DNA of 63,998 nt, filler included, from Reclinomonas americana ATCC 50394 (GCA_048213135.1; 9 parts of 4 records of this genome joined end to end with filler, not necessarily neighbours in it); one strand, 5' to 3'. Shown: positions 20,092 through 60,484, counted from the first letter of the whole stretch. The notes: a model not told the origin generated them from the letters alone. Made by a program: numbers and translations.

Positions 20092-20265
20092 NNNNNNNNN
20101 NNNNNNNNNNNNNNNNNNNNNNNNNNNNNNNNNNNTTAATTAATTAANNNNNNNNNNNNNNNNNNNNNNNNNNNNNNNNNNNNNNNNNNNNCTGCGCGCT
20201 ACCCTGCACAGACAATTCGTACGGCGATGAAGCGCGCAACTCATCGAACCCGCAGGCACGACCAC

Positions 20266-33100: not shown

Positions 33101-35144
33101 CATTTGCGCGAAAAGTCGTACAGCATGAACGAGCTGGCAGTGACGCAACTCGGCACCACGCGACAGGTTTGCGCTTCGTCGTCCGACCACTGTTGGTGGT
33201 TGTCGACACTCACCCTTTCTGGCAGATTATCGAGAGCGACCTGCCGACGTACGAGGCGTACTACGGCTCCGCCAAGGGCCTCACGTANNNNNNNNNNNNN
33301 NNNNNNNNNNNNNNNNNNNNNNNNNNNNNNNTTAATTAATTAANNNNNNNNNNNNNNNNNNNNNNNNNNNNNNNNNNNNNNNNNNNNAAGGCTGCACTTC
33401 GGCGAAAGGCGAAACAATTGGCTGATGCTGACTGTGTCGCCCAGGTGGTGTACGGCGATACCGACTCGGTCATGATCAACACGCACACCACGGATCTGGC
33501 AGAGGCGCGCAAGATCGGCAACGAAGTGAAGAAGGAGGTCAACCAGCGGTACACACATCTGGAGATTGAGATTGACGGCATCTTCTCCCGCATGCTGCTG
33601 CTGCGCAAGAAGAAGTACGCCGCAGTGACGATTACGGAGATGCCGGACGGCACGCTGGTGGAGAAGAAGGAGGTCAAGGGTCTGGACATGGTCCGTCGCG
33701 ACTGGTGCCCGCTGTCGCAAATCATCTCCAAGTTCCGTTGCTCTCTTCCCGCACATGCGTCGCGCATCGCGGCAGCGATGAACTGATTGTCATTGTTGTT
33801 TTTGTTTGCATCCCGCGCAGCAAAGTGCTGAGTGAGCTGCTGTCGAAGAAGCCACGAGAGGAGGTGGTGTCGAACATTCATCGCCTGCTGCGCGAGCTCG
33901 GTGAGCAGCTGCGGTCGCCCGTGGTGACGGTGCCGCTGGAACAATTTGTCATCTCCAAGAGTCTCACCAAGGTCAGCATGCTCACTTCATCCTTCGTTCG
34001 CACCCATGGGAGACGACATAACAATCTTGATTGCAGGCGGTCGACGACTACCCGGACGGCAAGAATCTGCCGCACGTGCAGGTGGCGAAGCGCATGCTGG
34101 CCAAGAACGTGCCGGTGCACGTCGGTCTGCGCATTCCGTACGTGGTGTGCATGGCGCCGACGCCGAACACACCGATTGCCGATCGCTCCTTCCACCCGGA
34201 GGAGGTGGTCGGACAGCACACAGTGGACTATGAATGGTGCGGCGTGCAGCACAGAGTCATTTCCTCTTGGGAGAATCACTCACGGGTGGTGCACGCAGGT
34301 ACCTGGCACAACAAGTGTATCCGCCCGTGGAGCGCCTGTGTGGCCCGATTGAGGGCACCGACAGCGCGCTGCTGGCCGAGTACCTCGGCTTGCCGTCTAC
34401 CGTGCACGCCTCGTCGACGACCGGTCGTGACGAGTATGCCTACGATCCACTGGCCGCACCGGCGGAGCGGTACCGGCGATGCAAGCCGCTGGAGGTGCGC
34501 TGGAATGGCTCGGTGCACCCGATCAAGGGTGTATTGCAGGAGCAAATGGACTCGGATCCGGTGCGTTTGGTGTTGTTGTTGCCAGGAATGGGAGATGTGC
34601 AGGACTTCTCACCTGCGGCACACCGCAGCTCGAATCGCCGTGCGTGCTGAAGGGCATTCCATTCGCGCCGATCGCCAACCAAATCACTCGCATGGTGCGC
34701 GACCTGCTGCAAGAGTACTACCGCTGCGTGGTGTATTCGGCCACGCCCGGCAACGAGGAGAAGACCGAGACGCGACAGCTGTCGCTGGCCGATTTCCGTC
34801 ACCGCAAGCCGGAGGTGAAGCGGTGCGTGACTGACACGGATGTGGCGCTGCAGCTGGAATACCTGCGGCATCTGTTCGACGCCACCGCTGCCGAGCGCCA
34901 CATGCAAGAGACGGCGGCAGGGCGGAGACCAGGCGCCAAGGGCACTTTCCGGCCGCCGACGGACGCCGACGAGCTCAAGAGGCTGCGCGAGTTTGTGACG
35001 GGCTACATTGAGAAGAGTGAGCGACAGCGTGTGCAAATGAGCTCGCTCTTCTCCATGTTTACCCCCAAGACCGCCTCAACAACGACGACCACCACAACGG
35101 CAACAGCAGTTGCCGCCACCGGAGGCGCGTCTTCGTCGCGATAG
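30198..35144 (+). CDS. POLA1: DNA polymerase alpha catalytic subunit; central part missing in the spacer
   Basis: N-terminal DGFIVDE motif, FFFDAYE, VKRRYAFE, LERLLLKRRLHGPCW, DPDVIVGHN..GFDLDVLLHR, GRLVLDTY, VVYGDTDSVMIN, LLLRKKKYAA, KGLDMVRRDWC, YLAQQVYPPVERLC, QLEYLRHLFD. Confidence 0.97.
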
Positions 35145-39195: not shown

Positions 39196-39461
39196 NNNNN
39201 NNNNNNNNNNNNNNNNNNNNNNNNNNNNNNNNNNNNNNNTTAATTAATTAANNNNNNNNNNNNNNNNNNNNNNNNNNNNNNNNNNNNNNNNNNNNCCTGC
39301 ATCGCCACCGATGCTAGTCGGTTCCATGTCTGCCCGCGGCTTCTTTGATAATCAGAAACGCCGGTCAGTTGCGAGATAGCCTAATGCAAAGTCGTTGGAC
39401 ATTTAGTCGTTCCCGCGCTCGGCAATTGTCCACGGTTTGCCTTCATTCACCAATCACGCAA

Positions 39462-41562
39462 ATGCGCGCGGAAGCTCTGCTGGTGGCATGGCACATGCTG
39501 CAGTACCCGGAGCCTGTGCTCAGTGTCGATGTCAGTCCATTCTCCTCTCGACTGGCCACCTCCGGTGCCGACAACACAGTCAAAGTTGAGCGCATACACA
39601 CGCATACCTCTCTCTCTCTCCCTCCCTCTGTCGCTCACCGTTTGCATGGGGGAAATGACTAGGTGTGGCACTATGCTGTGGACGCGGAGGGGCGAGTGAG
39701 TGTCGAGTTCCTGGCCAACCTCGAGCGTCACATCAAGAGTGTCAACTGCGTGCGATTCAGTCCAGTCGGTGCGTGTGTATGCAGTCTCTCCCTCTCCCTC
39801 TCCCCTCTCTCTCTCCCTCTCTCGCCACTCACTCGCCGTGTGCACACAGACGATCGACTGGCCTCGTGCGGCGACGATCATGCTGTGTTTGTGTACCGGT
39901 TGACTGGGCGACCTCCGGAGGCCGGTTCCGACAACAAGGAGAGCTGGGACAACGGGAAGATGCTGAGTGAGCACTCGGCCGATGTGTACGACGTGGCGTG
40001 GTCACCCGACGGCACCAAGTTGGTCACCGGCTCCATCGACAACACGGTGATTGTGTGGGATGCGGAGAAAGGTGTGGTGTGTGTCAGCTGCGCGAATGGC
40101 AAACACTGTGTGACACTCTTTCTGCGCAGGCAAGTCGCTGCTGCGACTGACAGAGGCGTCGCACTATGTCCAGGGTGTGGCGTGGGATCCACTGGACACC
40201 ATGCTGCTCTCCCTGTCATCCGATCGCGGGTTCCGCGTTTACTCGCGCTCGGTGACCTCGGCGCAAAAGGTACGCTCCGTGGTTGGCTGGTGGTGCATTG
40301 TCTGCTATTTCGCCGTCTCACATGTTTACGTGTAGGGTCGTCTCGCGTACGCCTGCACTCACAATGTGCGGCGACGAGCGTACACACACAATGGCGGCGA
40401 GTTTGCACACAATTACTTCCGCGACGAAACGATCGCCACGTTCTTCCGTCGACCGTGTTTCTCGCCCGACGGCTCCATCATGCTGGCGCCCACGGCGCAG
40501 TATCGGGATGATCCGAATGGGCCACTCGTTCACACCACCTACGTCTTCTCGCGACACTCGTTCTCGCGCCCTGCGCTGCACCTGCCGCTGCCGGGACAGA
40601 AAGTGACTGTGGCCGCGCGCTTCTCTCCCGTACTGTACCACAAACTGCATGACGACGCTGACGACGTGGACGAAGTGCAACCGATGGCGGCGCTGCCGTA
40701 CCGTATGGTGTTTGCTGTCGCCAGTGTCAATGCCGTCTTTGTGTACGACACGCAGAACTGGTCGCCGATTGCGTTCGCCACCGACCTGCACTACGCCAGC
40801 ATCACCGACGTGGCGTGGAGTGCAGACGGTCGACTGCTGTGTGTGTCGAGCTCCGACGGCTACTGCTCGTTCTTGACGTTTGCGGAGGGCGAGCTCGGCA
40901 GTCCTATTGCCGCCGAAGGTTTGTGCTCTCCTCTTCTGTGTCACACTGTTGCACCGACCATCAACGCCCACGCAGAACGAGATGCTATTTTGAGTAAGAT
41001 GCGCGAGGAGGAAGCCGTGCGCTTCACCAAGGTGGGCGGCGCCACACGAAAGCGCGGTGGCGGTCGGAAGCGAGCCACGGTTGCGGCCACTGTCGCCGCA
41101 TCGGCCTCCGGTGTCGTTGCGAATGTGGTGCCAGACGTCGAGTTGCGTGTGGTCTCCTGTGTGTTGTGTGTGAATGCGTGCGTATGTGGGGGAGCAAGTG
41201 ATGATCTGAAGTGCACCGTGCGCAGGATGGCCGACGCGGCTGCAGACGGCTCCGCTGACCAGTCCGCAGTGCACTTGCAGGCTTCAAAATCAAGCGGGGA
41301 GGTTCCTGCACGCGTTGCCTTTGTGTGCGACGAGGATTCGTCAGCTGAGGAGGATGAGGACGACGAGGACGAGGAACGGGAGGATGAGGAGCGGAGAGTG
41401 GAAAAGTGCGCACTGGCAAGTGTCGAGGCTGAGTCCAGTGCGACACCACTGGCAAGCAGTGCAACTCCAGTCACCGTGCAGCCCATGTCGGTGGACGACG
41501 AGAGCGCGCCAAAGCGAGCTAGACCGCGTGTGGTGCCGCGCCTTGTACAGCCTCTCCCATGA
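39462..41562 (+). CDS. CHAF1B: Chromatin assembly factor 1 subunit B (Cac2/p60/FAS2), WD40
   Basis: AWH, RLATSGAD, VEFLANLERHIKSVNCVRFSP, HYVQGVAWDP, DETIATFFRRPCFSPDG, LPYRMVFAVAS, YDTQ, LHYASITDVAWS, and a C-terminal B-domain-like PRVVPRLV. Confidence 0.95.
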
Positions 41563-41630
41563 GAATGTCAAGAAAATATATTGTACTGCTCGTTTGTTGT
41601 GGTTTGTTGCTGTGTTTATCAGTCGTTGAC

Positions 41631-44600
41631 TCATGTGTAAATGAGCATGGGTTCGTGTGCAACCTTTTGCCGCGCAAACGCAGTGATGCCGCGCGCCAGG
41701 AGAGCCATTGCCGCCCAAGCAATCAGTTGTCCAACAATGAGCCACAGCGGCTCCAATACGCATGCATGCATCACGTCCGAGAGCACCGACGTCGTGGCCT
41801 GCGCATCCAACGGGAGAAGTGAGATCAGTACACATACCCGCACGACACAATAGAACGTCGGCCACTCACCACGCTCCAGTCTTCCTGGTTGTCGCGGAAT
41901 TTTCCAATAGTCACCAGCACCATGTACGACAGGAACAGGCCGAGAAGCACGCAAAAGATGCGGCCACCGATCTTCAAGGCGTATGGCAAATCGCGCAAGC
42001 GCGCTCGCCAACACAGTTCCTCCAGCGAACTCGTACCGCGATAGCCCATTTGCTGGCGGCTAGCAGTGACCGTCGGACGCAGCATCGTCGTCTCGCGTGT
42101 GCCGTGCCGTCGCTCCACCAACACTGAACGTGTATCGCGCACCGCAGGTGTGCACGATACTGGATCGGCGCAATTCACAAACAGAACGCCATCAAGCACC
42201 ACCAGTGACGGGTCCATCATCTCGGACAATCCTTGAGGCAAACTGTTGCGCATCTGCTCGCAAGAGAGACAGAGAGAGAGAGTTGATTAGCATGTGATGA
42301 TCACTATCGACAAGTGGAGAAGAGAACGCAACTGAAGACAAGAGCGCTGACGTAGATGGATCACACTCCACGCCGAGACCACAACCAAAGCCGACTGCAG
42401 TGTCGTGCGCCAAAACAACGTGACGAATGTGCAGTTCGGCCACTGGCCGATAGCGCCCATTCTAGATGATAGATGAACGAAATTCAGAAAAACCTCATCA
42501 GTAATGCGAGAACTGCAGTACTGTCTCTTCACCTGTGACTCCACGTCGTCATCGCATGTCGGTGTCGTCGACTCCCACGCACCACCCGCTGGCGGTGGTA
42601 TCAGTGCCGCTAAACTCATGCGTCGCTCGCCGTTCTGACTGTCAACTTGGCAGCGAACGTCTCTGACTTGCGCCACCGCACCGTCGTAGTGAGCGGCGCC
42701 GCCAAAGGCGCCGTGACGGACACCCGACGATGACGACTCTGACGATGCGCACTCGTCTCGCCACCCCTCAGCCAAGGCCGACTGCACACGCAGTACCACG
42801 CGATCTGTCGCCGATACAAGCTCAGACCCCTGCATCTGGAGCACTGCTTGCCACTCCTCACAGGCAACCAGCATCAGCACGCCAGTTTTTGTGCAGCACT
42901 TGGCCGGAATGCTGAGCGGCGGGTATACGCCAGGTCGCAGCAGAATCACACTCGGCAGTTGCTCGTGATGCTCGTCAAACAGTCGTTGCAGCGCATGCGG
43001 ATCCGCCGCACCGTCAATGTAAACGTAATCTTCCGAGTCACGAATGCGCTGCAACTCCGCTTCCGTCGCACGCTGCGGCGAGAAGAGACCCTGAATGCGA
43101 GCCGATATTTCTGTTGACAAGAGAAAGAGAGTCAGGAGCGGCCAGTCCTGTCTACTCTAGTGCACACAGCACGCGCGTCTGATCGCACCTGGTGATTTCT
43201 GAGCAGCCGTGTTCCACCACTCCTCTTGATCGGAGCGGAATAGCTGATGCTGCAGGAACGCAGCCACCAAATCAAAGTAGCACTCGCGCATGACACTGTA
43301 GGGAGCCAGGCGTTCCTCCAGCAAGCCCTGGCACTGGATCTGCGACATCACGCACGCATCATGTCAGCACGCACTATACAAAGATACTCACTGAGGTAGG
43401 GCACGGGACGGCAGTAACGCACAATCCAAGCTCGAGCAAACAGCGTGAATCCACCGAGCGGATTGTTCATCGACGTCTCACAGAGAGCAAGTTGCAAAAG
43501 TGTGTTCACATGCGGAGCGCAGATGCACGGGCGGCTTGCAGCAGCATCGGTAACCTGGACGGAACCAACGTCGTCAGCTGCGGTGTTTTCGGGCAGGCAG
43601 CAAGAGCTACACGTAACTGGACGACTGTCGGGAAGTGCGCGCCAGCTGAAACGCATGGTCGACAGGCAGTATTCGCCGGCGGTGTCAGGTTCACTGAGAA
43701 TAGTGAAGCCGAAAGGCTGACGGTCACGCAGCCAGCCGCGTCTGGCGAGCTGTAGCCCCCGCCCCCCAAAAAACAATGAGGACACTCGCTTCCACAAAGT
43801 CTGCATCAAGCAGCAAGGTCCACTCACATTGCTGGCGACTCGCTGGATTTGTGCCGACGCAAACGCCGATGGATTGCGGTCGACGGCGGATACGGTAAGT
43901 TCAATATTTTCTTGCTGCCGCCTCAAGGCCGCAGCCTTCAACTGACTCAGAAGCACACGTGCTGCCGGTGTCGGCAAAGGTAAGTAAAACGCGACATTTG
44001 CAAATACAGAACGAGAACAATCCACTCAACAGAGGTCGACCTCGTCAGGAGTCTTGGACGGCGGAGACGGGTGACGACGCGGTGTGACGTAAAACATCCA
44101 GCCAACCAACAGGACAACAGGAAGAGCCACTAGTCCGCCTGCTCAGCGACGCAACGAGATCGGTGAGAAAATCGACACAAGATGGTGAATGCAAGTCTCA
44201 GTCGTCGCACACTAACCAACAACCGCAGCGCCAAGAGCATGCACAATCGTCAGTGCCACACTTTGACTGCTGGTACTCATCGCCGCATTGACGTAGCAAC
44301 TGGCCACCAGGCCCACCCACAGCAACTGTGCAGCAGAGAGTGAGAATCACCCCCTGTTTCCGCGTCGCTCGACAACAACATCGAATAACAACAGCTGTAC
44401 AGCACTACTCACCAGCACTTTGTCCACTCGTCGTACGGTTGTGTCACGGCGTGGTTCAATCACTGCGGATACCCACAGATGCTGCCGCGCCAGAGTCCGA
44501 GCATGCTCCTTCAGTCGCTCGGCTGTGGACCGCTGGCGTCTCAGGGCAATCACCCGGCGCACAGCGGCCTGGAAGCGACGCAGTGGGCGACTGGGGCGGA

Positions 44601-47600
44601 CTAGATCCTCGCGCTCCGCCACCAGAACCACCGCACTGTTCGCTGGCAGGTCGGCACCGACCCGGGGCGATGCGCCTGCCGGCGAAAGTGCGTCCGAGGT
44701 GGCGTCGTCACTGACACGTCGGGCAATCAATTGTGCCTGACTGTCAGCAGAGCACGTCGATGCCGCATCCAGCTGATCGTGGTGCTCGGAGAATGGTGAG
44801 TCACTGGCTCGCTGCACCACCGAAGACATTTTCTGCGCCACCAGGTAATTAGCACATCGCCGCACATCACACCCAGAGAAAGTGCGTACAAACCCGCCGC
44901 GCAATGTCGACCTCCAATGACAAACTGCGGCGATGACGAGACGAGTGCGCCAACAACATCTGCGTACTGTCGCGTCGATTTCGCGAACGTCTTGCATCCC
45001 CAGAAAAGGTGAGAGTATCCATTCTGGCAAGGCGCGGCACCTGCCGACGTGGCTGACTTCGCTGCCAAGGAGGAGCAGTCTCAGAATCGTCCGCCGACAA
45101 CGACGGTGAGTCGACTCGCAGGGGTGACGTGGAGAGCAAAACGGGTGATCGAAGGCGTTCGACGACCTCATCGTCGCTGGGAGACTCACGACGTCCGTCC
45201 CACACCGAGTTAATGCGGGATACTGGACGGGCTTGATGCGACGGCAACTCCGCCTCAAAGATGAGCACAGCATTGCTGGCCACTGGATCGACACTGCCGG
45301 GCAGTTTGACGTCGCCGATCACAGTATCTGCCACGCTGATCGACGGCGAATGACGAGTAGAGGGGCCAGATAACGGCGAGTCAAACGCCGGTGACAACGA
45401 CGACATGGAGAACTGGAAGAGGGGAATCTCCGAAAGCGACACGGGAGGCATTTGCGACTGGGCAGAGAGCTTGAGCGTGAGAACAGCGGATAAGATCACA
45501 GAATTCGAAGAGTCGTGCCAACCTGGTGTCGGATCATGGATCCAATCGGCCGCAAGTCTCCTCGCCGACTCGCCGAGCGCACTGGCGACGGCCCTTGCTC
45601 GTCTATTGGCTCCTCGACGAACCGCGGCATGCGTCGTCGCGAAGAGCCCACGTGCTCCGAGCCCTCATCTGCTACTGCTGATGGTGGTGCATGTAGGACA
45701 AACGACGACTCCATGGGCACATGGAGCCATGACGCCACGCCCAGTAGATGGCCACGTCGACGAGACTGCACCCGCTCTCGCAGGTGATCGCCATCGTCAA
45801 CAGCAATAGCTGGAGCCGACTCAGGTATCGTCGCGTCCTTCCCCACTTTCGCCTCCACAGCCTGCATTTCGCGATCACGAACAGCCGCCAGCTCGGCGAG
45901 CCGCGCCAGATACTTGTGGCGCTGCTGTACCGCGCATTCATCCTGTTCATGGGGCGAATGATGATTGAGAACAAGCACGCAGGGAATGTCTGTGTGCGTG
46001 TGTGTGAATACAGGCCAGCGACATACCTCCACGTCCAGAGCGCGATCGCGACGCCACATGACCACAACAGTCACCACAAACAGCACAAAGTATGTGCACA
46101 GGAGGAAGAACGTTGGGCTGAGGAACACGTTGTGCTTCGCAATCAGATTGGCATCCGCCGGACTGGCAAACGTGAAGGAGATCTTTGGCAGGATCGACAA
46201 ATCCAGCGTCTGCATGGACGATGAAGATTATTCAACACAGCTGGATCACACCACGCAAACACCAACAGGAAACGCAACAAAGTCGGTCATGTGACTGGTG
46301 GCACAAAAGACGCCAGTGACCTGTTTCCACTCTTCGTCAGTGACACAGCAACAACGTGAGAGAGGCATGCACAAACACACAACATTCGGTAGCTGGCCCC
46401 TCAGGATCGGTTCCACCACAATGTATGTGCTTAGTCCGGTGGCACTCAACCGATTGCCGGTCTTGCATACGTCGCGAGAGACACACAGTGGAATCCACGT
46501 ATTCGGCAACTCAATCATCATCGGCGCCGCGGTAGTCACGTTGAATCGATACTCCGATTCCGCTGCGCACCGAAGGAGCGGCGATGTAAGTCACAAATAT
46601 GAGCGCTGTCTGCGGCAGTGACATTAGCGCAACTTGCATTGGTGCAGTTTTGCAACATGCACATGGCAATCCGTGAAAACGTTTGGTTGTACTGGCCAAT
46701 CACACTCTGCCACTCGGGAATCACAAGAACCAGTGGCTCCTGCTCGTCCTTTACCGATACAGTGTCTTCGGGACTCTGCGCAGCAAGGGTCAAGATACAC
46801 TCACACGCACGGCAGTAGATGTCTCAGTCGTCAAGCACACCTGCACCGAGTACGCGTACACCTTGGACGGTTGCGCCTTCTTGTTGTAGTCGTTGGTCGC
46901 ATTGACAATCGGCACGCCAGTAAAGCCCACCTGTGAGGGCACAGACAGTCAGCAAATCACTGTGCATGCATTGTACATAACCAAAGAAGGACGCACCTCG
47001 ACCAGCGCATTAAAGTGATCTGCATCACCGGCGAGTCGCTGGCCTATCGTGTGCGGCAAGACTACAAGTGGAGTCTGCAGCGCATCAGAACCGCGTGCAG
47101 ACGTCAGCGTCTCAAATGCCACTGAGAAAAAAACATATGGTGAGAACTCTACGAGGACACTTGTCGATTTGAAGGGCTTGTGGCTCACCCGAGTATGCTC
47201 CCTTGGATGCCGACGTCACAGTTGGGTCCACTTTTTGGGCGCGGAACGTAAAGTTTGGCGTTGAAACCGTTGTCGCGCCCTCTTTCCCGGTCTGCTCACA
47301 AGGTGAGCATGCACGGCAATGTCCAACACACAAAAAGAGACTCACCAGTCCAGCCACTGTGCGATGTGCGATCTGATTCAACACCGGTTCCAAGGCGCAC
47401 TGAGTGGCAATCGCATCCGCTTCGTCTGTCGTCGGCAGCGAAAGCATGGTCGACACGGCCTCGGCCAGTGACTGCAATGACAAGAGAGCAAAACATCGGT
47501 CAGCTGCTAACTACACCTCGCACGCAATGGGAGCGACGCGCGCTGACACGGACGCACACTCAGCGCAGCAGTCGACGGGTATGCCGACAAATTCTGCGCC

Positions 47601-50600
47601 ACTGCGCGTGCCGCGGACACCAAGTTCTGCCGCACCACCTGCATGTCGGCGGCTGGTAAGCTGCTAGTCACCTGTGTGGCGTGGTACGAACGTCAGTTCC
47701 TGACTGTAGCAGATAGTAAAATCGAGGCACCACCATGCACTCACATTCGCCACATTGTTCACCACAGAGGCGAACGACGCCAGTTCCAGTCCGTCACCCG
47801 TGGACACATGACTGCTGGCGGCAAGCACGACCTCCGACATGCGCGTCAAGGCGGAAGGGGAAACGACTGTCATGCGCACCGCAGTGTCAATGGCATGCAG
47901 TCAATGAGACGAGAATGCTGGCCAGCCAACTTAACTTGGAGAAGTGTCACTATTGCCAAACAGCATGCTGCTACCGCTCAGCAGAGACAAACTTGCTGTC
48001 ACAGTGCTCAACACAATTGAAGCGGCGCCAGGACTCTGTGCCAGCACCGATGAGAGTGAGTCACGGACGGCGACGCCAATCAACAATGAACATTCAGCGC
48101 GCACCGTGATATTTACGGCACTGGCCGACGACAGCACTGTATCAACTGCGGCTAGCACAGAAGTGGAGTCGGCATACATCTTGCGGTGCAAGGTAATGAC
48201 AGCGGTGACCGACGTTCTGCGAAGAGAGTCAACAAGTCGGCAAGAGATTGGTGCGAACAGCCGAGAGCGCAGGTGCGTGAACGACTCACCGGCCACCATC
48301 CACATCAGTCGCTGTAACACCAACGATGGCTTGATCCTGAGCGCGGCACAAGTGCTGCAGTTTGACCCCGCTGACCTTGCCCGATGGACCCGATCCCAGA
48401 GTCAACTGCGGCGCACAAAAAAATGAGACCAAAGTAAGACAGCGATAAACAGCGCGAAACTGGCAGACAGGGGATGACGGCACCTGCTGATTGGATTCGG
48501 GATCGAGCACAAAGAAAGTGTACGTCAGCGGCATTGGCGAATCAGGATCTTGGAAACCAGTGGCCACCAGGTCGAACTCCGTCTCCAGCTCCACTCCCTC
48601 ACTCGGCGAACAGACAAGCATGCCACGAGTCGGTGGCACATTGACCGTGATTAAACGACGAATGAGGACTGCAGAAACGAGTTACGACACGTCAGCTCCA
48701 TCGCAAATGGTTGCGGGCAGACGGAAAGTAATGCTACAGTCTACAACACACCTCGTCCAGTCAGCGGATGCGTTACCCAGGCTTCGGCTTCGTACGCGAC
48801 TCCAGGAACGAACGAATTGGCTGGAATAATCGCGAAACCATCGCTCGGTGTCCATCCGAACGAGGCGACTTTGACCGAGGGTGAGCCGGTCCTATTTTTT
48901 TTTCAAATTGCACGATCAGAAACGGCAGGATACCAACTCGTGCAACAGACACAACGCAACGCTTGCGAATAGATTCCCCACTCGAACGTCATCTTTGCGA
49001 CGTCAGCAGGCGCCACACCGTCCATGATCAAATCCAGCGTCAGCGGCAGCGAGGCATCAAAGCTGCGAGACAAGCTCCCCTGCGCAAAGCACGATAAGAA
49101 GGAGGAAGGAAGCACACCAGGATCTCGATCACAGCATTTCTCCACGCACTCGAATAAAGGCATTTCCCGAGCCGATGCGCGCTGTCTGGGTTCCAAATTC
49201 TGCGGCACATTCACACAAAGAGTTGGAACACAACATAAAACACTGCTCACAACAACGGGCACACACGCACCTTGGAAGACGTACACGTTCTGCGCGTACA
49301 CTCCACCGTTGCCGTCATTGGTCTGCACTTGCACTTCGTGGTTGCTGCCAGCCAGGTCGTCCGTGTCCACCACGAGGTTCGAGCCGGTGACGTTGAACTT
49401 CGACCCAGATCGCCCGCCGATAATCGTCAATGTCTGCGTCTGGCAACAATTGTTGTCGCTGACGTCTAGCGGTCCAATGATGGTTCCGCGCCGTGCAAAC
49501 GGCGTCATGCCCACCACCGCGGGTTCCACAGCAAATGTGTTGTGCACCAGCGCAATGGATGTCGGTGGCACATTCGCTGTTGTAACAACAATCCCCAAGA
49601 GAGTCAGTCGCCAACGGAACACCACAATGACGGACAAAGCGAAAAAACGGAACCTTCAGTGATAGTGAACGACTGCGACTGCGACAGCCCACGCGAGTCG
49701 GTCACTTGCAGTGTCACTTGCAAGTTCAGGCCCTGCTGCGTCGGCGACCGGACAACCAGATTTGTTCCCTGGACATCAAAGAGGCTGGCGGCCGGACCAC
49801 CAGCAACTGAGTATGTCAACACCTCGTTCGAGTTCAGGTCCGTGGCCGACAGCTGTCCCACTGCGGAATTGGCGGTCCCCGACATGGGAATGTACAGCCG
49901 ATTCGACAAGGCGAGACCCGTGGGCGCCACATTGACTAACGAATCGCAAGACGTGATCATCAGTCAACGCGTGTGCACAGACAGCTGCCGCTCGCTCTTG
50001 CCTCACCTTCATCAATGATGACGCCGACTTTGACGAAGAAGAGACCTGCTGCGTCGGTTACACGCAGATCCACACGGAGACCCATTCCACGAGTTCCGGC
50101 GGCACTGATTCGCAGCTGATTGGCAGCGATGTTGAAGAGTGCAGCATTCGCACCGCCAACAATCGAAAACGTGTGCGAATCACCGACATTGGCGTCCACT
50201 GCTGTCAGGTTGCACACAACCTGGTTGGCTGCCATTGTAGGGAAGACGTACACATTGGTGGAGAGCAGAATGTTGGTCGGCGCCACATTGACTGCACCCG
50301 AAAACACAGTCGCGTGAGCACAGAGGCAAGAAATCAATATATCCACAGAGCAGTGCACGACGTGTAACTCTGTGTAATCGTGAAACTGACGTCCAGGGTC
50401 AGGCCGGCAGAGTCGGTGGCGCGGACGATGACCACGAAATTCGTGCCCACTTGACCCGCATTCACAAATCGCAGTCGATTCGTACTGACGTTGAACAGCA
50501 TCGCATCGGCCCCGCCAACAATCGAAAATGTGTGCGAATCGCCCACATTCGGATCGGTGGCAGTCAGAGTGCCGACCACCGTGTTGGCCCCAGGTGTCGG

Positions 50601-52100
50601 CGGAGCATACGTGGTGGCGGACAAAGTAATGCTCGTGGGTGGCACCGGTGCTGCGAGCAATTGCACGGACGTAAGGACGATTCTTGACAGCAACGCAAAA
50701 ATTGCGCAGTTATCAACCTTGTGTGATGGTAAACATTTTGAAAAATGCCAGGCCACCAGCATCGACGGCGCGAAGGACCACTTGGAAGCCAGTGCCAATC
50801 TGACCGGCGGCAGTGATGCGAAGCGAGGCGCCAAGAATGTTGAACACGGCAGCATCGGTGCCGCCGCTCACCATAAACGTGTGAGTGTCACCAACATTTG
50901 GATCGATCGCAGAAAGTGTGCCGACCACAACATTGGCGACTGCCGTTGGCGGCGCATACGTGGAAGCTGACAGCACAATGTCAGTGGCTGGGACATTCAC
51001 TGCGCAGAACAAGTGGCGTGTCAGCACCAACACCACATCACCATCAACCATGAACGCCGACTCACCATCCACAATGGTAAACGTCTTGTCGAACCACAGT
51101 GCGCCAGAGTCGGTGACTCGAATGGTCACAGACAGATTCGTGCCGACCTGCCCCACATTGACCAGGCGCAAACTTGTTCCAGCAATCGAGAAGAGCGCAG
51201 CATGTGTTCCACCCTGAATCGTGTACACAGCCGTCTCCACAGTGTTCGGATCGGTTCGACTCAACGACCCGACAGCTGTTTGCGGGACCGTGGTCGGTGG
51301 AACGTAAGACGAGTTCGACAGTGCGATGTCCGTGGGCGGCATGTTGGCTGCGCGTGTGAACAGCGAGTGATACCACCATCAGCACCACACTTATCACACA
51401 AGCCCGCACACCAACAAACAAACACACACGCTGCTCGCTGTCCCTCTCTCTCACACACACAAATATACAAGCACGATTCGTACCTTCAGAGAGCGTCAAC
51501 GTCTTGTCAAACGTCCCACCCGCACCATCATTCGTCCGCACAATGACCACCAGATTGTTGCCCGTCAGTCCCGCAACATTCACCCGCAGCTGATTGCCAC
51601 TGATGTTGAACGACGCCGCATTCGCACCACCCACAATGCTGTACGTGAACGTCTGACAGCAGTTCGCGTCCACCGTCGACAGCGTGCCCACAACCGTGTT
51701 CAGTGGCGCAGGTACTGGCGTGTACAGTGTCGAGCTAATACTCACATCCGTTGGCGCAACATTGGCTGCGCCCACCACACCACATCAATCGTGTCAGCAG
51801 ACATCGCCCTCCCTTCTTTTTCCGTATTTCCCCTCCCACGCACCTTCGTCCACTGTAAACGTCTTCGAGAACGTGAGCGCCGCTGAGTCTGTCACACGAA
51901 TCGTTACCACAAGCCCGTTCCCAGTCTGTCCCACATTCGACAGCCGCAGTTGATTGCCCGCAATGTTGAACGCAGCCGCATTCGCCCCACCAGTAATGGC
52001 AAACGTGAACACATCACCAAGATTGCCATCGACGGCAACCAGCGTCCCCACTACCGCATTCGTTGACAGCGTCGGCGGCACATACGTCGATGACGACAAC
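41631..52100 (-). CDS. Polycystin-1-like receptor, 5' end lost in spacer: at least 8 cadherin-like repeats, REJ domain, GAIN/GPS, five TM helices
   Basis: Repeats N.PPT.I.LS...VGTL...D.N....F.I.GG...F.I.G..L....V.+R.TD..G..F...F.I (52100-49270). REJ motif NVPPTRGMLVCSPSEGVELETEF...FQDPDSPMPLTYTFF (~48640-48510). GPS CATSHMTDF (~46305-46280). TM1 at ~46110-46055, then QHLWVSAV...VRRVDK, TM2-3 (44325-44085) and TM4-5 with VLEPL (41975-41690). The exon junctions I checked join in frame. Confidence 0.85.
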
Positions 52101-52200
52101 NNNNNNNNNNNNNNNNNNNNNNNNNNNNNNNNNNNNNNNNNNNNTTAATTAATTAANNNNNNNNNNNNNNNNNNNNNNNNNNNNNNNNNNNNNNNNNNNN

Positions 52201-53183
52201 GCCCGGGCTGGCGATGCGCATGGGTGGTGCGGCGGCGGAAGGGCTCGTCGCCGTCGTGGTTGTGGTTGTAGTTGTGGTTGTGGTGGTGTCACCACCGATG
52301 GCTGTGTGGGAGGGGAAGGGAGAGGAAAGGAAGCGGGTTGAGTGGATCGGTGGTGGGGATCGAGGGGGGATGGTGGAATCAACGCACACGCGCAGGCGGC
52401 GAGTGTTGCGCAGAGAAGGGAGTACATGGGAGGGAGGGAGGGAAAGGGAGGACGGGGCGGGAGAAGTGCGCAATTGAGAGGGGGGAGTGTGAACTAGAGA
52501 GCGGGCGAGCGTGGGTAAGAAGGAGGGCGAGCGGGTGTACAAAAACGAGAGGGACAGCGAGCGCGAGAGAGAGAGGACGACAAGCGCAAGAAAGAGGACA
52601 AGCGTACGCACGAGAGAGGGAGAGGGTGTGAAAGAGAGACGGCGAGGGTGTGCACGAGAACGAGAGGGGGGAGGTAAATGTTTTAAGAGAGAGTGAACGT
52701 ATGTGCTGCAGACACGATCCCCCGGAGAACGGTAGTGTTATCCTGTGAATGAATGCAGAAGGAATGAAAGCGTGTGACAGCTTGCGTGAGAAATGAGAGC
52801 GACTGAATGAGTATCCCTGTGTGAAGATACACAGCTCCCCTCCTCTCCCACCCTGTCCCCAATTGTCTCCTTGTCTGCCTGTCCTCACTTGTCGCGGAAG
52901 ATTCCTCGAGGGAGACAAGAGAGTGCGCAAGTGAGCGAGGACAATGCAGCTTGTATGTCGAGCGTGCAAAGGATGTGTGCAAGAGAAGGGGGATCGTTTG
53001 CAGCTTGGGAGAAAACAAGAGAGGAGAGTGCTCAGAATCACTCTCGGAATGCTTTGTCTGCCACTGAGAAGAGAGAAAGAGAGAGAGTGAAGGAAAACGA
53101 GTGTCCTTGCATTGCTTCTCAGAAACGCAGAGGACAGAAGTGAGAGAACTTGAGCACGCTTCTACCTGTCCCTCTTCTCCTCC

Positions 53184-53215
<32 letters not shown>

Positions 53216-53627
53216 TGAATCAAAAGAGCGTCCTTGCATTGCTTCTCTTGAGCACAGAGTGCAGGAGAGAACTTGAGCACGCTTCTACCTGAGAGAGAGA
53301 GAGAGAGTAAAGCCGAGAGTCCATCAGACATCTCCTCTCGTGTGCGAGTACAGAATTGCGAGAGTTGAGAAGGAGAGAGCGCGTGAGGCAGTGTGTGTCT
53401 CTCTCTCCTTCTCCTCCACTTCTCCCTCGAGAGTGAGAATGAGAGAGCGCGTGAGGCAGTGTGTGTCTCTCTCCTTCACCTCCACTACTCCCTCGAGAGT
53501 GATAAAGAGAAAGCGCGTGAGGCAGTGTGTGTCTCTCTCCTTCACCTCCACTACCTCCCTTGAGAGCGAGAAAGAGAGAGCGCGTGAGGCAGTGTGTGTG
53601 TGTCTGTCTCTCTCCTTCTCCTCCACT

Positions 53628-53705
<78 letters not shown>

Positions 53706-53825
53706 TCCTGTTCACTCTCACTCACGATTCCTCATGGCCATTGCCGCCGCCTCCTGGAACGACTCGGTGCGTGGCAGATACTGTCCACCGCGAGCACCAT
53801 TCCCGCCACCGCCAAACGCCGCCAT
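52201..53825 (-). CDS. 5' part of a hypothetical gene (two exons, ~1.4 kb repeat-rich intron), truncated by spacer
   Basis: Exon 53825-53726 (MAAFGGGGNGARGGQYLPRTESFQEAAAMAMRN, donor GTGAGT) joins in phase 1 to exon 52301-52201 (PIGGDTTTTTTTTTTTATSPSAAAPPMRIASPG). Confidence 0.55.
53375..53700. repeat. Intronic minisatellite: four ~66-70 bp units (GCGCGTGAGGCAGTGTGTGTCTCTCTCCTTC.CCTCCACT...) followed by (CT)n
   Basis: Unit cores start near 53379, 53447, 53513 and 53580. A separate two-copy ~125 bp repeat (GTCCTTGCATTGCTTCTC...GAGAACTTGAGCACGCTTCTACCTG) lies at ~53103-53291. Confidence 0.9.
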
Positions 53826-54938
53826 GACGCAAAAAAAGTCGACTTGAAGTGAGAGAGAGCGGGAAGAGTCACTGTGAGAGATGAGAGAGAGGAGAAATTA
53901 GTGTGAGGAAAAATTTGGTGTCAGAGACAGTGAGTGGTGTGCGTGTGCGCGTGTGTGTGTTTGGCAGTGTGTGGGAGAGAGACAACGAGAGAGTGTGTGT
54001 GCGTGTGTGTGTTCGAGTGTGAGTGTGAGAAGTGGGCAATGCCTGCGCGCCAGTGAGAGAATTGAAATGCGCGTTGCGTCTTGTGTCGCACGCTATGAGT
54101 GTTTGCGCGTGTAACAGAGAGAGTTGTTCTTGCTAGTGTCTGACGGTGTGTGTGTGTGTGTGCTCACCAACCAGAAGTGTGTGGAACTTGAGTGGAATTC
54201 CGGTGGACGGATGCGACTTTTGTGTAAGGTTGGCTCAGAGCGGTGAGCTCTTTGCGGATGTGCGTCTCTCGGAGTCTGCTTGATGGCGATGGGCAGTAGG
54301 CGGAATAACGCGGTCTGTGCACTTTGCAATTCGAATTACCGAATTTGTAAAATTCAGAGAGGGAAGAGGACGGTTTGCAGCGGATCAGAAGCAGTTTCCG
54401 CAGTGTGTGCGTTGGAAGCTACTCCTATACGCGTTTGGATTGCTGCAGTGAGAGAAATTGAAGCGGAAATGCGAAAGCTGTGAAAAAATCGTCACAGTTC
54501 TGCAACTCAGCGCCGGAAAACAAAGCTCACTTGTCGTCTATGAAGAGAGTATACACAAGTTTCTAGATCAACCTTCACCAGACAGCCATCTTCCGTCCGG
54601 ATCCAAGTGAGTACAAGCGCCGAAGTTCGAATTCGTCTCGCCGAGCTGACACACAATTCGAAACCATCGTAGCTGGGTCTACAGTTACAGCGCAAGGTTC
54701 TAGCTTCCTGCGAGCTGCTGTGCGGCCGCTGCAGCTGGTCGGTTTCAGTTTCTATTGACGACTTCGCGTGTCCGGATCCGACTCAGAAAATCCTGCTTCG
54801 CTCCTCATACGCAGTGTAATATACCCGCTGCCTCTGCTTCCGCTGAGCTTGAGCTGCAGCCTCGCCTTGGCGGTGCTGCCTTGTCGACTTCGCAAGCAGG
54901 ACAAGTTGATTTTTCGCGCGCGATTGATTGCAAGAGAG

Positions 54939-55246: not shown

Positions 55247-55529
55247 GTGAGTGAGAGAGGAGAGGGAACGAGGGGGGAAAAGGGAAGGAAGAGAGAGAGA
55301 GACTGTCAGCCATTCTCACTCTGTCTTTCACACGTGAATGGAGAGAGAGAGATAGAGAGAGANNNNNNNNNNNNNNNNNNNNNNNNNNNNNNNNNNNNNN
55401 NNNNNNTTAATTAATTAANNNNNNNNNNNNNNNNNNNNNNNNNNNNNNNNNNNNNNNNNNNNCTTTGTTGTCTTCCCCCCTCCTCTCTCTCTGTTTCTAT
55501 TCAGCTCACTCACCTTCCCTTTTTGCAAG

Positions 55530-56601
55530 AACCCTGCGCTCCTGCTGGCTTCGTCGCACTCGTCACGCCGCCACGCGCTCCACTGTCTTTTGCACGATTT
55601 CACTGCGACAGTCGGCGGTGGCTGGCGAGGGCGGTGTGCACGAATCGCCGCTGTTTGCCCGGCTGCAGCTGGTCGAGCTGGCGCCGGCGTTGCTGGCCAC
55701 CACGTCGGGCGACTGTCGCGCGGAGGCACTGGTGCTGTCGCGTGTGCTGCAGATGCTGTCGGCTCGCCCCGCGCCCTCCTCGTTGGCCACCGTGCCGTAC
55801 CGTGAGGCGACGCTGACGCGCCTGCTGTGTCAGGCTCTCGGCGGCAATTGCCGCACGGTGATGGTGGCGTGCGTGTCGCCGGCATGGAGCGACGCCGCCG
55901 AATCCATGTGCACGCTGCAGTTTGCGTCGCCGCTGGTCTCCCGCGTCTTCAATCGGCCGCATCCCAATCGGTGGAGGGACGAAGGGTCGATCACCAAGGC
56001 GCAGTGGCGAATCGCCGAGTTGGAGCGGGAGCTGGCGCAGACGGTGAACGATCAGGCCGAGTGGAGACGCGAGCAGGACTGGCTGCGCGCGCGTGTCGAC
56101 GCTCTGGAGAACGTGCAGCAGCAGCTCGACGCCGCGAATGTGCGCATGGCGGCGCTGGAGGCCGAACGTGCGCAGGCCTTGCTGCAGGCCGCCTCCGCCT
56201 TGGAGGAGATGGAACAGTTGCGCGTGTCGCAGGCGGAGGCCGTGGCGCGTGCGCAGGGCGTGGTGGAAAACGTGCGGGCCATGCACGAGCAGGAAAAGGC
56301 GGCGTTGGCGGCCGCGCACCAGCAAGAACAAAGCAGATTAGAGGCGGAGCACGAGAGTGGTAAGGAGGAGTTGCGCAAGGAGCTGGCGGCAGCGAGAAAG
56401 GAGATGAAGGCGCTGCAGGACGAGAACGAGGAGCTGCAGCGTGTGGTGGAGGACACGCGGTGTGAGCTGGCCGATCACAAGGATGCGCTGGCGGAGCTGA
56501 ATGTGGAGGTCGACGAGCGGGACGAGTCTATTGCCAATATGCAACACAAGTGCCGGTCGTTGCAGGCGGAGGTGGAGAGGTGGAGGAAGGAGGTGGCGGA
56601 G
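55530..56601 (+). CDS. Divergent kinesin: C-terminal half of the motor domain plus coiled coil (internal exon)
   Basis: VPYREATLTRLLCQALGGNCRTVMVACVSP...ESMCTLQFAS...NRPHPN, followed by a heptad-rich helix. Confidence 0.88.
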
Positions 56602-57600
56602 GTGAGGAAAGGGAGAAGGAAGAAAGGAGTGGAAAGGGGGGACAAGTGAGAAGGATGCGACAGAGCGCGATTAGGGAAGGAAGAGCGTGTTCTCTTCATT
56701 GATTATGAGTCTCTTTCTCTCGCTGCATCTGGACAATCTGTATATCTCTGGTTCTCATGTTCATGTTGTTACTGTCTCTTCGCTTATTNNNNNNNNNNNN
56801 NNNNNNNNNNNNNNNNNNNNNNNNNNNNNNNNNNNNNNNNNNNNNNNNNNNNNNNNNNNNNNNNNNNNNNNNNNNNNNNNNNNNNNNNNNNNNNNNNNNN
56901 NNNNNNNNNNNNNNNNNNNNNNNNNNNNNNNNNNNNNNNNNNNNNNNNNNNNNNNNNNNNNNNNNNNNNNNNNNNNNNNNNNNNNNNNNNNNNNNNNNNN
57001 NNNNNNNNNNNNNNNNNNNNNNNNNNNNNNNNNNNNNNNNNNNNNNNNNNNNNNNNNNNNNNNNNNNNNNNNNNNNNNNNNNNNNNNNNNNNNNNNNNNN
57101 NNNNNNNNNNNNNNNNNNNNNNNNNNNNNNNNNNNNNNNNNNNNNNNNNNNNNNNNNNNNNNNNNNNNNNNNNNNNNNNNNNNNNNNNNNNNNNNNNNNN
57201 NNNNNNNNNNNNNNNNNNNNNNNNNNNNNNNNNNNNNNNNNNNNNNNNNNNNNNNNNNNNNNNNNNNNNNNNNNNNNNNNNNNNNNNNNNNNNNNNNNNN
57301 NNNNNNNNNNNNNNNNNNNNNNNNNNNNNNNNNNNNNNNNNNNNNNNNNNNNNNNNNNNNNNNNNNNNNNNNNNNNNNNNNNNNNNNNNNNNNNNNNNNN
57401 NNNNNNNNNNNNNNNNNNNNNNNNNNNNNNNNNNNNNNNNNNNNNNNNNNNNNNNNNNNNNNNNNNNNNNNNNNNNNNNNNNNNNNNNNNNNNNNNNNNN
57501 NNNNNNNNNNNNNNNNNNNNNNNNNNNNNNNNNNNNNNNNNNNNNNNNNNNNNNNNNNNNNNNNNNNNNNNNNNNNNNNNNNNNNNNNNNNNTCGTCGTC

Positions 57601-57653
<53 letters not shown>

Positions 57654-57950
57654 CTTTCTCATGACTTCTACCATTGCTTCTTTGAAACAGCCTTTGTTGT
57701 TTACTAACTATCGTGTCGCTTTGCATGTACTCCTTCCTGATTCTTCTCTCTCTCCCACACTCTCTCCGCTTCTTGCAGTCCACTTTCATTCGTATTCATA
57801 GTGCGTCTGTACGCTTTGCGACTGATTCCTTCCTGATACTCGCCTTCCAGTCGATGTGCATCGTTCATGTTCTCATGCTCTGCTTTTCTCGTTGCCTTGT
57901 CCTGCTCACTGGCTGATCTGCTCCTTTCCTTGTTGGATTCTGTTTGTTGG

Positions 57951-57992
<42 letters not shown>

Positions 57993-58530
57993 TTCTCCTC
58001 CCTCACTGCATTCTTTCGTCCAGTCGGCATGTCTGCTTTGATCGCAGTCTCCTCGTTTTCTTGCGCTCCTCACTGGCTGGCCTGCTTCTTTCCTTGTTGG
58101 ATTTTGTTTGTGGCGCTTTCTCTCTCTCCGCTTCTTCATGCTTACCTGCATCGTTTGCGTTCTCAGTGCGTCATTGTCATGTATTTCCTCTCCTCTCTGC
58201 CTTCTCGATTCTTCGATTTCCTCTATTTCTCTCTTTTACTCCCTCCCTCTTTGCATCTCTTCTTCCGCTCGATATGCATTGTTCGTGCTCGTGTGCACTT
58301 CATTGTTTGCAGTCTCCTCGTTTCCTTGTCGTGCTCACTGGCTGACCACCGTGCTTGTCTTTCTTGAATTCCTTTCTGACTTTCGTTCTCCCTTGTTCCC
58401 TTCCTCCCATACTCCCTCTCTCTCTCTCTCNNNNNNNNNNNNNNNNNNNNNNNNNNNNNNNNNNNNNNNNNNNNTTAATTAATTAANNNNNNNNNNNNNN
58501 NNNNNNNNNNNNNNNNNNNNNNNNNNNNNN

Positions 58531-60134
58531 CACGCGCGGCGACGCATCTATCTCGGGCAATCTCAACGTGCAAGACGGCTTGTTATGTACCACTGCAAGT
58601 ACGTCCAGTAAGAGCGTCGGCGTCAACACGTGCTCACCCGATCGAGCCGTGGCCGTGGCCGGCGGTTTACGTGTCACCTCTGGTGTACCTTCCAGTACCA
58701 CCACCACCTCTAATGATGTCGGTATCACATTTGGTCCGACGGGGTCGGAAGGAACGGGAATCTACACACAGCCGGGTGAGTGGGCGATGTCGAAGAAGGA
58801 TGTGATTGCTCTTTTTTTCCTGCTGCTCGTGGCTGGCTTTTCGAGCTCGAATCCTCTCGCCCTGTTTTTTTACTTGCGCTTGTGTCTGCATGTCTTGTGC
58901 ATTTTTATCCATCTCTTTCTTCACTTGTCCATTCCACTGACCATTCCGCACTTTCCTCTCCTTCTTGCCCACTTGAGTGTTATTCACTATTTATGTCCCC
59001 TCTTCTTCCTCTGTTGTCACGTGACTGGCATTTCCTTTCCGTCTTGCCCGCCGTGTCTCTTTGCTGAGCTTCACTTTTTCACTCTTGTCAGTATCTCCAC
59101 TCTGTTTCTTACGCGCCCTTGCCGTGCTCTCTTCTTTGTTCCATCTTGCTCACCTTGTCTCGCTTCTGAACTTCTCTTTCATTCGCTCTTTCGTCCCTGC
59201 GTCTCTCTCAGTGTCTCCCACCTGTTTCGCTTGTTGCTCCTTGCTGTTGGCATCACGCTCGTTTATCGTCGCTTCTCGTCGCTTGTTTGCTCTTTACACC
59301 ATGTGATTGCTTGCCGCTGTCATGCGCATGCTCTCTTCCACTCTGTCTCTCTCACACTCCCTTCATTATTCCCCGTCCCTTTCCCCTCTTTTCCCCCTTC
59401 TCCTCACCCTTCCTCCGCGCAGTGGGCACCATCTCGTCTACCACCCGCCGCCTTTTGCGCCACGAGGCAACCGCCCTGGCATCTGCTACCGCCACTGGCC
59501 CTGCAGCAGCTAGCGGCAACACCAACAACAGCGGCAGCAGCATCCCCACAGTGGAAAATGAGGCACCGGGAAATCAAGTGCTCTCGCTGCTGGGCATGGA
59601 AGCCGATTTGGATGCCGCCTCGCTGCCGTCACTCGCCGCGCAACAGCGTCGTCTGTTGCAGACCAATTCTACCACGGCGAGCGGGCAGGCTCAGACCATG
59701 ATCTTCCAGACGAACGGGAACCAAATCATGCTGTTGCCGGCGTCGGTGTCGTCGCCGATTGTCATGTACACGCCACTCGATGTGCGCGGAACAATCAGCG
59801 TCGGTGCCACGCAGGCCTTCTCGTCCTCCAATGCCATGCTGCAGAGTTGCGTTGCTACAGCTGCAGAAGCACGTAGTCTTCTTGGCGAGACACTCATCTC
59901 TCGCGCGCTGCACAGTCAACGCCGCGTCGGCCTTCACCAACGGCGTCGCCATTGGCCCGAGTGCGGCACTGACTGTGAAGAACGATCGCTCTGTGACGGT
60001 CGGTGCTGATGGCGAACGGCTGCTGATGACTGTCAATGGATCTGTACGCGCCGGCAAGGGCGCGCCGTCGACCACCAAGCCGCAGGGCTTTGCCTTTGAG
60101 GCCGATCACGACACGGGCATGTTTGCCAGCGGTG
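58531..60134 (+). CDS. Partial spliced gene with phage-tail-fibre-like beta repeats and two RRLL motifs
   Basis: Three exons (58531-58775, 59423-59845, 59916-60134) join in frame. Two related units: VGVNTCSP..VAGGLRVTSGVP..GITF..GTGIY and TVNGSVRAGKGAP..GFAFEADHDTGMF. Confidence 0.6.
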
Positions 60135-60484
60135 GTGAGTCTTGATGAGATAGGACAGGAAGGAGGCGATCCTGTTTCTTGTTGACATTGCGGCACCTTT
60201 TCTACACTCGTGCGCTGAATTCTTGCACGTATTATGTTTTGTTCTTGTGCTGCTCGACAAATTCCTGCTTTGTATCTGTTTTTTTCTGTCTCATTCAGTG
60301 CGCTCCCTTCAGTTCCTCTCGGCCTTTTCCCCCATCACTCGCTTCATTCCCTCGGTCTTCTCTCTCTCTCTCTCTGTCTGTCTCNNNNNNNNNNNNNNNN
60401 NNNNNNNNNNNNNNNNNNNNNNNNNNNNTTAATTAATTAANNNNNNNNNNNNNNNNNNNNNNNNNNNNNNNNNNNNNNNNNNNN

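Follow-up and report, generated by a model that had tools for sequence, protein, structure and literature searches.

We analysed a window of 63,998 nucleotides of DNA from Reclinomonas americana ATCC 50394 (GCA_048213135.1), in which a multi-exon coding region runs on the minus strand from a stop codon at 41631-41633 to a contig edge at 52100. The minus-strand open reading frames (ORFs) at this locus are fragmented on the ORF map as in an intron-rich eukaryotic gene, and the 5' end is missing, cut by a gap linker at 52101-52200. The structure of the gene was deduced from DNA alone, using the ORF map together with ab initio splice-aware dynamic-programming (DP) models. The genome is intron-rich and does not look like that of an animal. 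The locus, which belongs to the piece 39296-52100 and has a GC content of ~0.55-0.60 in its setting, is a genuine intron-rich gene for a very large surface protein, an unusual mosaic of known parts (Table 1). At a probability of roughly 0.55, we favour the reading that a single large gene carries cadherin repeats, a REJ module, a GPS-like stalk and a membrane part of about five helices. An initial annotation of the window had proposed one minus-strand gene of more than 10 kb here, and this is borne out as a multi-exon coding region, its status as a single gene coming via the splice models. Once trained on the introns between the repeats, all DP models recovered those introns; their exon count ranges from 31 to 63 depending on the intron penalty, and they serve as sketches only.

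Table 1. Features of the candidate surface-protein gene and of its convergent neighbour, with the basis of each call (TM, transmembrane; KD, Kyte-Doolittle mean)
Feature	Position	Strand	Basis or remark
Partial gene	41631..52100	-	ab initio DP models: ~31-32 exons, ~2,450 codons
Array of 8 cadherin-fold repeats, one exon each	49271..52100	-	repeat profile, splice sites, fold
Repeat R1	51844-52100	-	truncated by gap; starts at profile position 8
Repeat R2	51484-51765	-	one exon
Repeat R3	51066-51347	-	one exon
Repeat R4	50718-50999	-	one exon
Repeat R5	50369-50650	-	one exon
Repeat R6	50007-50291	-	one exon, 285 nt
Repeat R7	49654-49935	-	one exon
Repeat R8	49271-49576	-	one exon, 306 nt
Predicted exons linking R8 to REJ core	48752..49199 (about 49150-49199, 48961-49079, 48752-48891)	-	DP model
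REJ core (PF02010 positions 308-357 of 452)	48496..48651	-	Pfam E=3.3e-10, 39.6 bits
Predicted helix-rich, then strand-rich exons, REJ core to GPS-like motif	46634..48216	-	DP model and residue pattern
GPS-like motif H-M-T-D-F	46279..46293	-	~40 codons upstream of TM1; exon status uncertain
TM1, strongest hydrophobic segment	46057..46113	-	KD 2.57
TM2, hydrophobic run split by predicted intron, letters HLWVS before	44262..44427	-	hydropathy and DP model
TM3, in ~50-nt exon	44086..44142	-	KD 2.08; kept in one DP model, skipped in another
Large predicted exon, ~190 codons, TM3-TM4 loop	42533..43110	-	DP model
TM4	41903..41959	-	KD 2.47
TM5, then ~20 codons and stop	41694..41750	-	KD 1.88
Convergent CAF1B/HIR1-type WD40 gene	39318..41562	+	Pfam PF24105, E=2.6e-30 and 1.5e-55

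The outer part of the predicted protein is dominated by the repeat array. A hmmsearch of the repeat profile against the six-frame ORFs found exactly 8 copies in the whole window, all in the contig of this gene, in keeping with the at least 8 cadherin-like repeats annotated initially; they are cadherin by fold and profile, Pfam Cadherin remaining below its threshold. The unit of ~94 codons corresponds to one 282-nt exon, R6 and R8 being longer (Table 1), and the 7 introns between repeats are GT-AG introns of 66-136 nt, all in phase 1. Such uniform one-exon units with phase-1 introns are the pattern expected of exon duplication. The repeats are 29-59% identical to R4, with invariant positions D32, N34 and D79 and a boundary that reads x-E/Q-x-N-V-A/P-P-T. 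By eye, none of them contains DxNDN or LDRE, and the classical calcium-binding linker motifs, which are of these types, are largely missing.

Several lines of evidence point to a cadherin identity. AlphaFold (AF2), run on the eight-copy alignment, gave a best model of seven strands with a predicted local distance difference test (pLDDT) score of 92.3, and when this repeat model was compared with the PDB by Foldseek, all 41 rows listed (ranks 1-50) were extracellular cadherin (EC) domains of cadherins, protocadherins and desmosomal cadherins (E 3.1e-3 to 2.6e-2, TMq 0.53-0.72). A search of PDB sequences with the repeat profile returned cadherins in 7 of 7 matches, all non-significant (E 0.1-0.62), the top one being CELSR1 (E=0.1). 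Against 1.84 billion representatives, the same profile found 15,287 proteins at E<=1e-3. Pfam was scanned on a sample of 24 of the 150 listed matches: 22 possess Pfam Cadherin, with E down to 1e-230. For 17 of 18 cases, the repeat-profile domain and the best Pfam Cadherin stretch overlap in register. Several of the matches also carry bacterial secretion or wall-anchor domains (CHU_C, Por_Secre_tail, SLH, RTX).

Other results weigh against this assignment. Pfam Cadherin (PF00028) did not reach its gathering score on the target, the best value being 13.5 bits (E=0.099) against a cut-off of 28.8 and in the R7 ORF only, while the other 6 of the 7 repeat-bearing ORFs gave no match to it at E<=0.1. 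The R7 ORF matched Big_9 (0.0031), He_PIG (0.014), Cadherin_3 (0.091) and Cadherin (0.099), all weakly. Moreover, the AF2 repeat was confident in 1 of 5 models only, the other four having pLDDT of 44-53, and Foldseek against the PDB gave no match at E<=0.001. Considering sequence profile and fold model together, the repeats are best assigned to a divergent cadherin-fold subfamily, cadherin by fold and by profile and not at the Pfam threshold.

The closest repeats found, among the matches listed, are those of predicted secreted proteins of euglenids. The best single-domain scores among the 150 listed repeat-profile matches belong to P0063 (94.8 bits) and P0137 (83.9 bits), whose cluster members bear the source names Eutreptiella and Euglena longa, respectively, and these are the two of the 24 scanned matches without Pfam Cadherin (E<=1e-3). 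They share with the target the same divergent cadherin-type repeat subfamily, missed by Pfam Cadherin. In BLASTP, the R3-R4 ORF is 37-38% identical to P0063 over two repeats, and in the alignment with this cDNA-derived protein 22 residues are gapped precisely where the in-frame 66-nt R3/R4 intron lies, which provides independent support for that intron. On the contrary, the rest of the architecture differs. P0063 has a signal peptide and then the repeats directly, whereas the target continues into the REJ module and the membrane part; neither P0063 nor P0137 has a REJ match, a C-terminal membrane helix or the H[LMIV][TS].F motif, unlike the target. The hydrophobic segments of the euglenid pair are the signal peptide of P0063 and three weak internal stretches, these in P0137 only. 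We also observed that the C-terminal halves of both proteins contain more repeats, with boundaries resembling the classical cadherin V-N-D-x-P linker; from their sequence these look like an unrecognised cadherin-type family in euglenids. Pfam finds one Big_5 domain in each of the two. When 18 ORFs of the target were compared by phmmer with the 150 listed proteins, the R8-bearing ORF matched, in 38 of them. The sole other match, of ORF 43351-44025 to P0120 (E=3.4e-5, 16.5 bits), is weak and was taken as compositional.

Downstream of the array, the REJ motif of the initial annotation is well established. Among the 23 ORFs scanned, one, 48289-48681, matched Pfam REJ, over residues 11-62 and at 39.6 bits against a cut-off of 25, and an ESM Atlas feature search with the REJ exon agreed, as 30 of 30 matches were REJ clusters with a top score of 0.93. 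By these profile and embedding matches, the target is assigned to the REJ-module family. The predicted exons that follow the REJ core, first helix-rich and then strand-rich, gave no match in a Pfam scan (46634-48216), and they are where a GAIN-type domain would sit according to the model. Some results weigh against the favoured reading in this part. The REJ match spans only 50 of the 452 model positions, and the remainder would fall in neighbouring exons. phmmer against the PDB gave 0 matches for 5 of 5 ORFs from REJ to TM. No homologue of the REJ-to-TM part came from protein searches with the loop exon (proteins of 507-2000 amino acids), the REJ ORF (427 candidates) or the GPS exon; these searches covered proteins up to 2000 residues, while the likely size of an orthologue is >2000, and their negative outcome carries little weight. 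Neither metagenomes nor viral sequences gave a match for the REJ and GPS exons.

The pattern H[LMIV][TS].F of the GPS-like motif is rare, with 8 occurrences in 127,992 six-frame residues, and H-M-T-D-F is located where the GPS lies in REJ-family proteins. Two DP models keep it as a micro-exon (46267-46294), which reads C-F-H-M-T-D-F, is in frame with both neighbouring exons and has canonical GT-AG sites; in this version, 78 GT-rich bases (46295-46373) are removed upstream and another intron comes after the motif. Of the two Cys residues usual in a GPS, one at most is present. From its rarity and its position, the motif is in our judgement a somewhat better candidate for a real GPS than for a chance string.

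The alternative that survives best, which we nonetheless hold to be rather unlikely, is that there is no GPS at all: H-M-T-D-F would be chance letters within a 174-nt GT-rich intron (46210-46383), and the product an uncleaved adhesion protein with a REJ module. Much of the evidence against a real GPS is also the evidence for this intron. The DP model with an intron-content term splices the motif out as intron 46210-46383 at all four penalties, and the composition is intron-like, with a GC content at third codon positions (GC3) of 0.46 compared to 0.56-0.73 in the repeat exons. A coding-versus-intron measure gives -7.5 to -10.8 per 60 nt for the 133 nt surrounding the motif, ~+2 to -20 for the seven known introns (best frames -8.5 to +1.8) and +3.9 to +9.3 for the repeat exons. 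Pfam GPS (PF01825) gave no match at E<=1 on ORF 46249-46590, the ESM Atlas search with the GPS exon reached a top score of 0.79, which is chance level, and a single-sequence AF2 model of the GPS exon alone was unusable (pLDDT 40.8). In addition, a Cys-rich stretch lies just upstream of the motif, which is what a translated GT-rich intron gives. What speaks for the exon is that so rare a motif falls exactly at the GPS position of the family, and that the micro-exon fits the frame and has a canonical splice site at either end. Moreover, 174 nt is longer than the seven verified introns, and the composition model, which had few codons to train on, disfavours those for Cys, Val and Phe. The initial annotation had named a GPS motif with H-M/T-D-F and proposed that the protein is self-cleaving; its letters are present, while Pfam GPS, the Atlas search and the fold prediction gave the motif no support. 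The claim of self-cleavage is not supported, the GPS lacking support from a hidden Markov model, an embedding or a fold and being possibly intronic. Nor is there support for the role in capturing prey or a substrate that the initial annotation suggested as possible. Separately, viral contigs were scanned with a DNA pattern for the textbook GPS consensus; of the 6 loci obtained, none is a real GPS protein: three hold one and the same 49-codon ORF, a chance one, and the motif is not encoded in the remaining three.

In the membrane part, five hydrophobic 19-mers with a Kyte-Doolittle mean >=1.75 were found, near 46113, 44427/44325, 44142, 41959 and 41750, matching the five TM helices annotated initially, with a count that depends on the splice model. 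Same-strand ORFs of 243-323 codons extend over two long stretches, one from TM1 to TM2 and the other from TM3 to TM4; neither stretch matched a known family, and the large exon predicted within the second one (42533-43110) gave no recognisable family and no match. PLAT, PKD_channel and 7tm had no match at E<=0.1 on any target ORF, although a PLAT domain split over short exons could escape such a scan; the stated lack of PLAT after TM1 agrees with this. The stop codon right after the last helix, together with the convergent CAF1B/HIR1-type gene, leaves no place on the contig for a 6-TM channel half, as the initial annotation had also concluded from an ORF ending right after TM5. A sixth helix considered at ~41350-41406 (-) proved to be the antisense of the acidic tail of CAF1B, and the protein was rejected as a G-protein-coupled receptor (GPCR) of the adhesion class, as there is neither a 7tm_2 match nor a seven-helix membrane part.

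Here also, some points weigh against the favoured reading. The DP models conflict in the GPS, TM2 and TM3 regions; about five TM helices is therefore a model-based best count and not a firm one, as TM3 and with it the count hinge on the splice model. When all PDB chains were searched by phmmer at E<=10, neither the pre-TM2 ORF nor the TM5 ORF had a match, a weak test as each covers a single exon. The letters HLWVS and EPL are present in these two ORFs, where the initial annotation took them for motifs of PKD1 type; the letters stand, and a similarity to solved chains does not accompany them. More generally, the description of this part as polycystin-1-like failed on all three counts, PLAT, eleven helices and detectable TM similarity.

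We next consider whether the cadherin-repeat exons and the REJ/TM exons are parts of one gene, which their arrangement makes very probable. The 3' end of R8 is a phase-1 donor at the same position as in the other repeats, with no stop; the frame stays open beyond it for another ~120 codons, reaching the next predicted exon (ORF 48906-49655), such that R8 and exon 48961-49079 share one open frame; and from 49271 to 48668 the coding-like ORFs follow one another at distances of less than 150 nt, too little for a terminator, a promoter and another signal peptide to fit in. We consider this very probably a single gene. The predicted pieces joining R8 to the REJ core (48752-49199) gave no family match in a Pfam scan. 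The opposite view, that a secreted cadherin-repeat protein and a REJ/TM protein were wrongly joined, finds some support in the closest repeat relatives, as P0063 and P0137 are secreted and without REJ or TM, and in the DP models, which force one gene; the donor of R8, the frame open beyond it and the spacing too tight for a gene boundary make it improbable. Least probable of all, and very unlikely, is a decaying or mis-assembled locus (a pseudogene or chimeric contig) with no functional protein, as might be argued from the fragmentary assembly with its many gap linkers and from several predicted loop exons near zero for coding potential (-0.7, -0.14), since 8 of 8 repeat exons are open with length, phase and conserved positions kept, the REJ exon is intact and long same-strand ORFs of 243-323 codons cover the loops.

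Considering the favoured single gene with its repeats, REJ module, GPS-like stalk and membrane part, a working scheme can be proposed. The outer part would consist of at least 8 divergent cadherin-fold repeats followed by the REJ module, and then by a helix-then-strand region ending in the GPS-like H-M-T-D-F ~40 residues before the first helix. About five helices would follow, with two long loops that would be cytoplasmic if the repeats face outwards. The cadherin array, judging from its fold, may bind a ligand or a surface; by analogy with the PKD1/REJ family, the REJ/GAIN-like stalk may couple this binding to the membrane core; and the protein may cleave itself at H-M/T. Mechanosensing and self-cleavage are both hypotheses. 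The target may work like the first half of polycystin-1, and we file it as a REJ-module protein and not as a PKD1 member; for the term "polycystin-1-like", the only justification lies in the REJ module and in the outline as a whole. A bolder proposal, which we put forward as doubtful, is that a non-animal, possibly euglenozoan, lineage independently fused a cadherin-type array to a REJ-GAIN stalk and a stand-alone five-helix polycystin-type core, giving a self-cleaving sensor of adhesion or force without a channel partner, a protist counterpart of Flamingo/CELSR with polycystin as its scaffold.

Compared to known systems, the target shares with the PKD1/PKDREJ/sea-urchin REJ family a REJ match above the Pfam threshold, a large ectodomain of beta-sandwich repeats, a multi-pass membrane part and an H-[LM]-T-x-F shortly before the first TM, whose exon status in the target is uncertain. 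It differs from the PKD1 family in that its repeats are of cadherin fold and not PKD-Ig, no PLAT was detected after TM1, its helices number about 5 and not 11, it has no channel-like half and no C-terminal tail, and its TM part is without detectable sequence similarity to solved PKD1 chains. In sea-urchin REJ proteins, the number of TM helices is variable and the channel half can be missing. With the CELSR/Flamingo adhesion GPCRs, the likeness is that of cadherin repeats that precede a GPS-type site, a candidate one in the target, and a multi-pass membrane part; on the contrary, the target has no 7tm_2 match, about 5 helices and two loops of several hundred codons, its repeats are missed by Pfam Cadherin, and it possesses a REJ module, which adhesion GPCRs are without.

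Outside animals, parts of this design have been reported. As far as its description goes, Esi0130_0068 of the brown alga Ectocarpus is a male-gamete protein of 1,427 amino acids with REJ, GPS and 6-7 TM helices and a reported match to the polycystin cation channel (PMC4700764). Compared by this description only, it resembles the target in being non-animal and in having REJ, several TM helices and, ahead of the first of these, a GPS, which in the target is a candidate motif, and it differs in having no cadherin repeats. Other reports describe a choanoflagellate protein combining Cadherin, GPS and 7tm_2 (PMC6040629), GAIN domains in Tetrahymena and Dictyostelium (PMC3321182), an origin of GAIN older than Holozoa, there restated (PMC12716839), and REJ-like domains in gamete proteins of Cryptosporidium (bioRxiv 10.64898/2026.10.13.757955). 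In PMC4890752, cadherin and REJ proteins are treated as separate. In the literature we did not find cadherin-type repeats, REJ and a five-helix core in one protein. The REJ/GPS/TM design and GAIN outside animals are already published, and it is only the combination of cadherin, REJ and five helices that was not found in print. "Undescribed system", the phrase of the initial annotation, is thus too strong, considering that REJ with GPS and TM, GAIN outside animals, and Cadherin with GPS and seven TM helices are all in print. Its idea that two architectures are combined outside animals keeps its cadherin, REJ and multi-pass parts; TM homology to PKD1 and self-cleavage are not supported.

On the favoured reading, this gene is a protist case in which cadherin-fold repeats occur together with a REJ module and a short multi-pass membrane core. 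Should the GPS prove real and the five helices correspond to polycystin-1's first half, the REJ-GAIN-five-helix unit would look like an old, self-standing signalling module; it would then have received different binding heads in different lineages, namely PKD-Ig repeats in the case of animals, lectins in that of sea urchins and repeats of cadherin type in the present gene, which would bear on the role of the non-channel half of polycystin-1 by itself. In addition, a cadherin-type subfamily common to the target and to euglenids and missed by Pfam Cadherin matters for counts of cadherins in non-animals.

At its 3' end, the gene faces the convergent CAF1B/HIR1-type gene with 68 nt between the two stop codons, and the 3' ends of the two transcripts probably overlap. 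Beyond the gap at the 5' end, the minus strand at 52203-52427 has an ATG, then a hydrophobic run resembling a signal peptide and a stretch rich in Pro/Ser/Thr. This could, speculatively and on its sequence features, be the true first exon of the target, a point that matters only if the linker stands for a gap within a scaffold. A DNA polymerase B exonuclease domain (31653-32954 +, E=8e-24) and a DNA polymerase alpha zinc finger (34431-35141 +, E=4e-13) flank the linker 33288-33387, on the same strand and in N-to-C order, which suggests that the linkers stand for gaps within a scaffold and that the pieces keep their order and orientation; in that case, the target gene may extend past 52200.

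The window is a chain of contigs joined by these linkers. Each is 100 bases long, with a 12-base spacer that stops all frames between two runs of 44 N, and they lie at 5814-5913, 20092-20191, 33288-33387, 39196-39295, 52101-52200, 55363-55462, 58431-58530 and 60385-60484. A lone N20 is found at 1902-1921, and larger N runs at 29307-29621, 56789-57592 and 61102-61692. From 52200 to 54400, a long dinucleotide-type simple-repeat tract translates as runs of E-R, H-T and S-L, with no recognisable gene. The region 56000-62000 has a GC content of 0.34-0.37 compared to 0.52-0.61 in the rest of the window, and its ORFs gave no Pfam match at E<=1e-5; it may belong to another genomic compartment or be of foreign origin. 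Neither Rfam nor tRNA scans of the window gave a match. Among the other genes of the window, we noted a WD40 protein (8252-10061, +), a cyclophilin (16212-17078, -), a protein with three bromodomain matches (24431-26608, -) and a homogentisate 1,2-dioxygenase (61995-63207, +).

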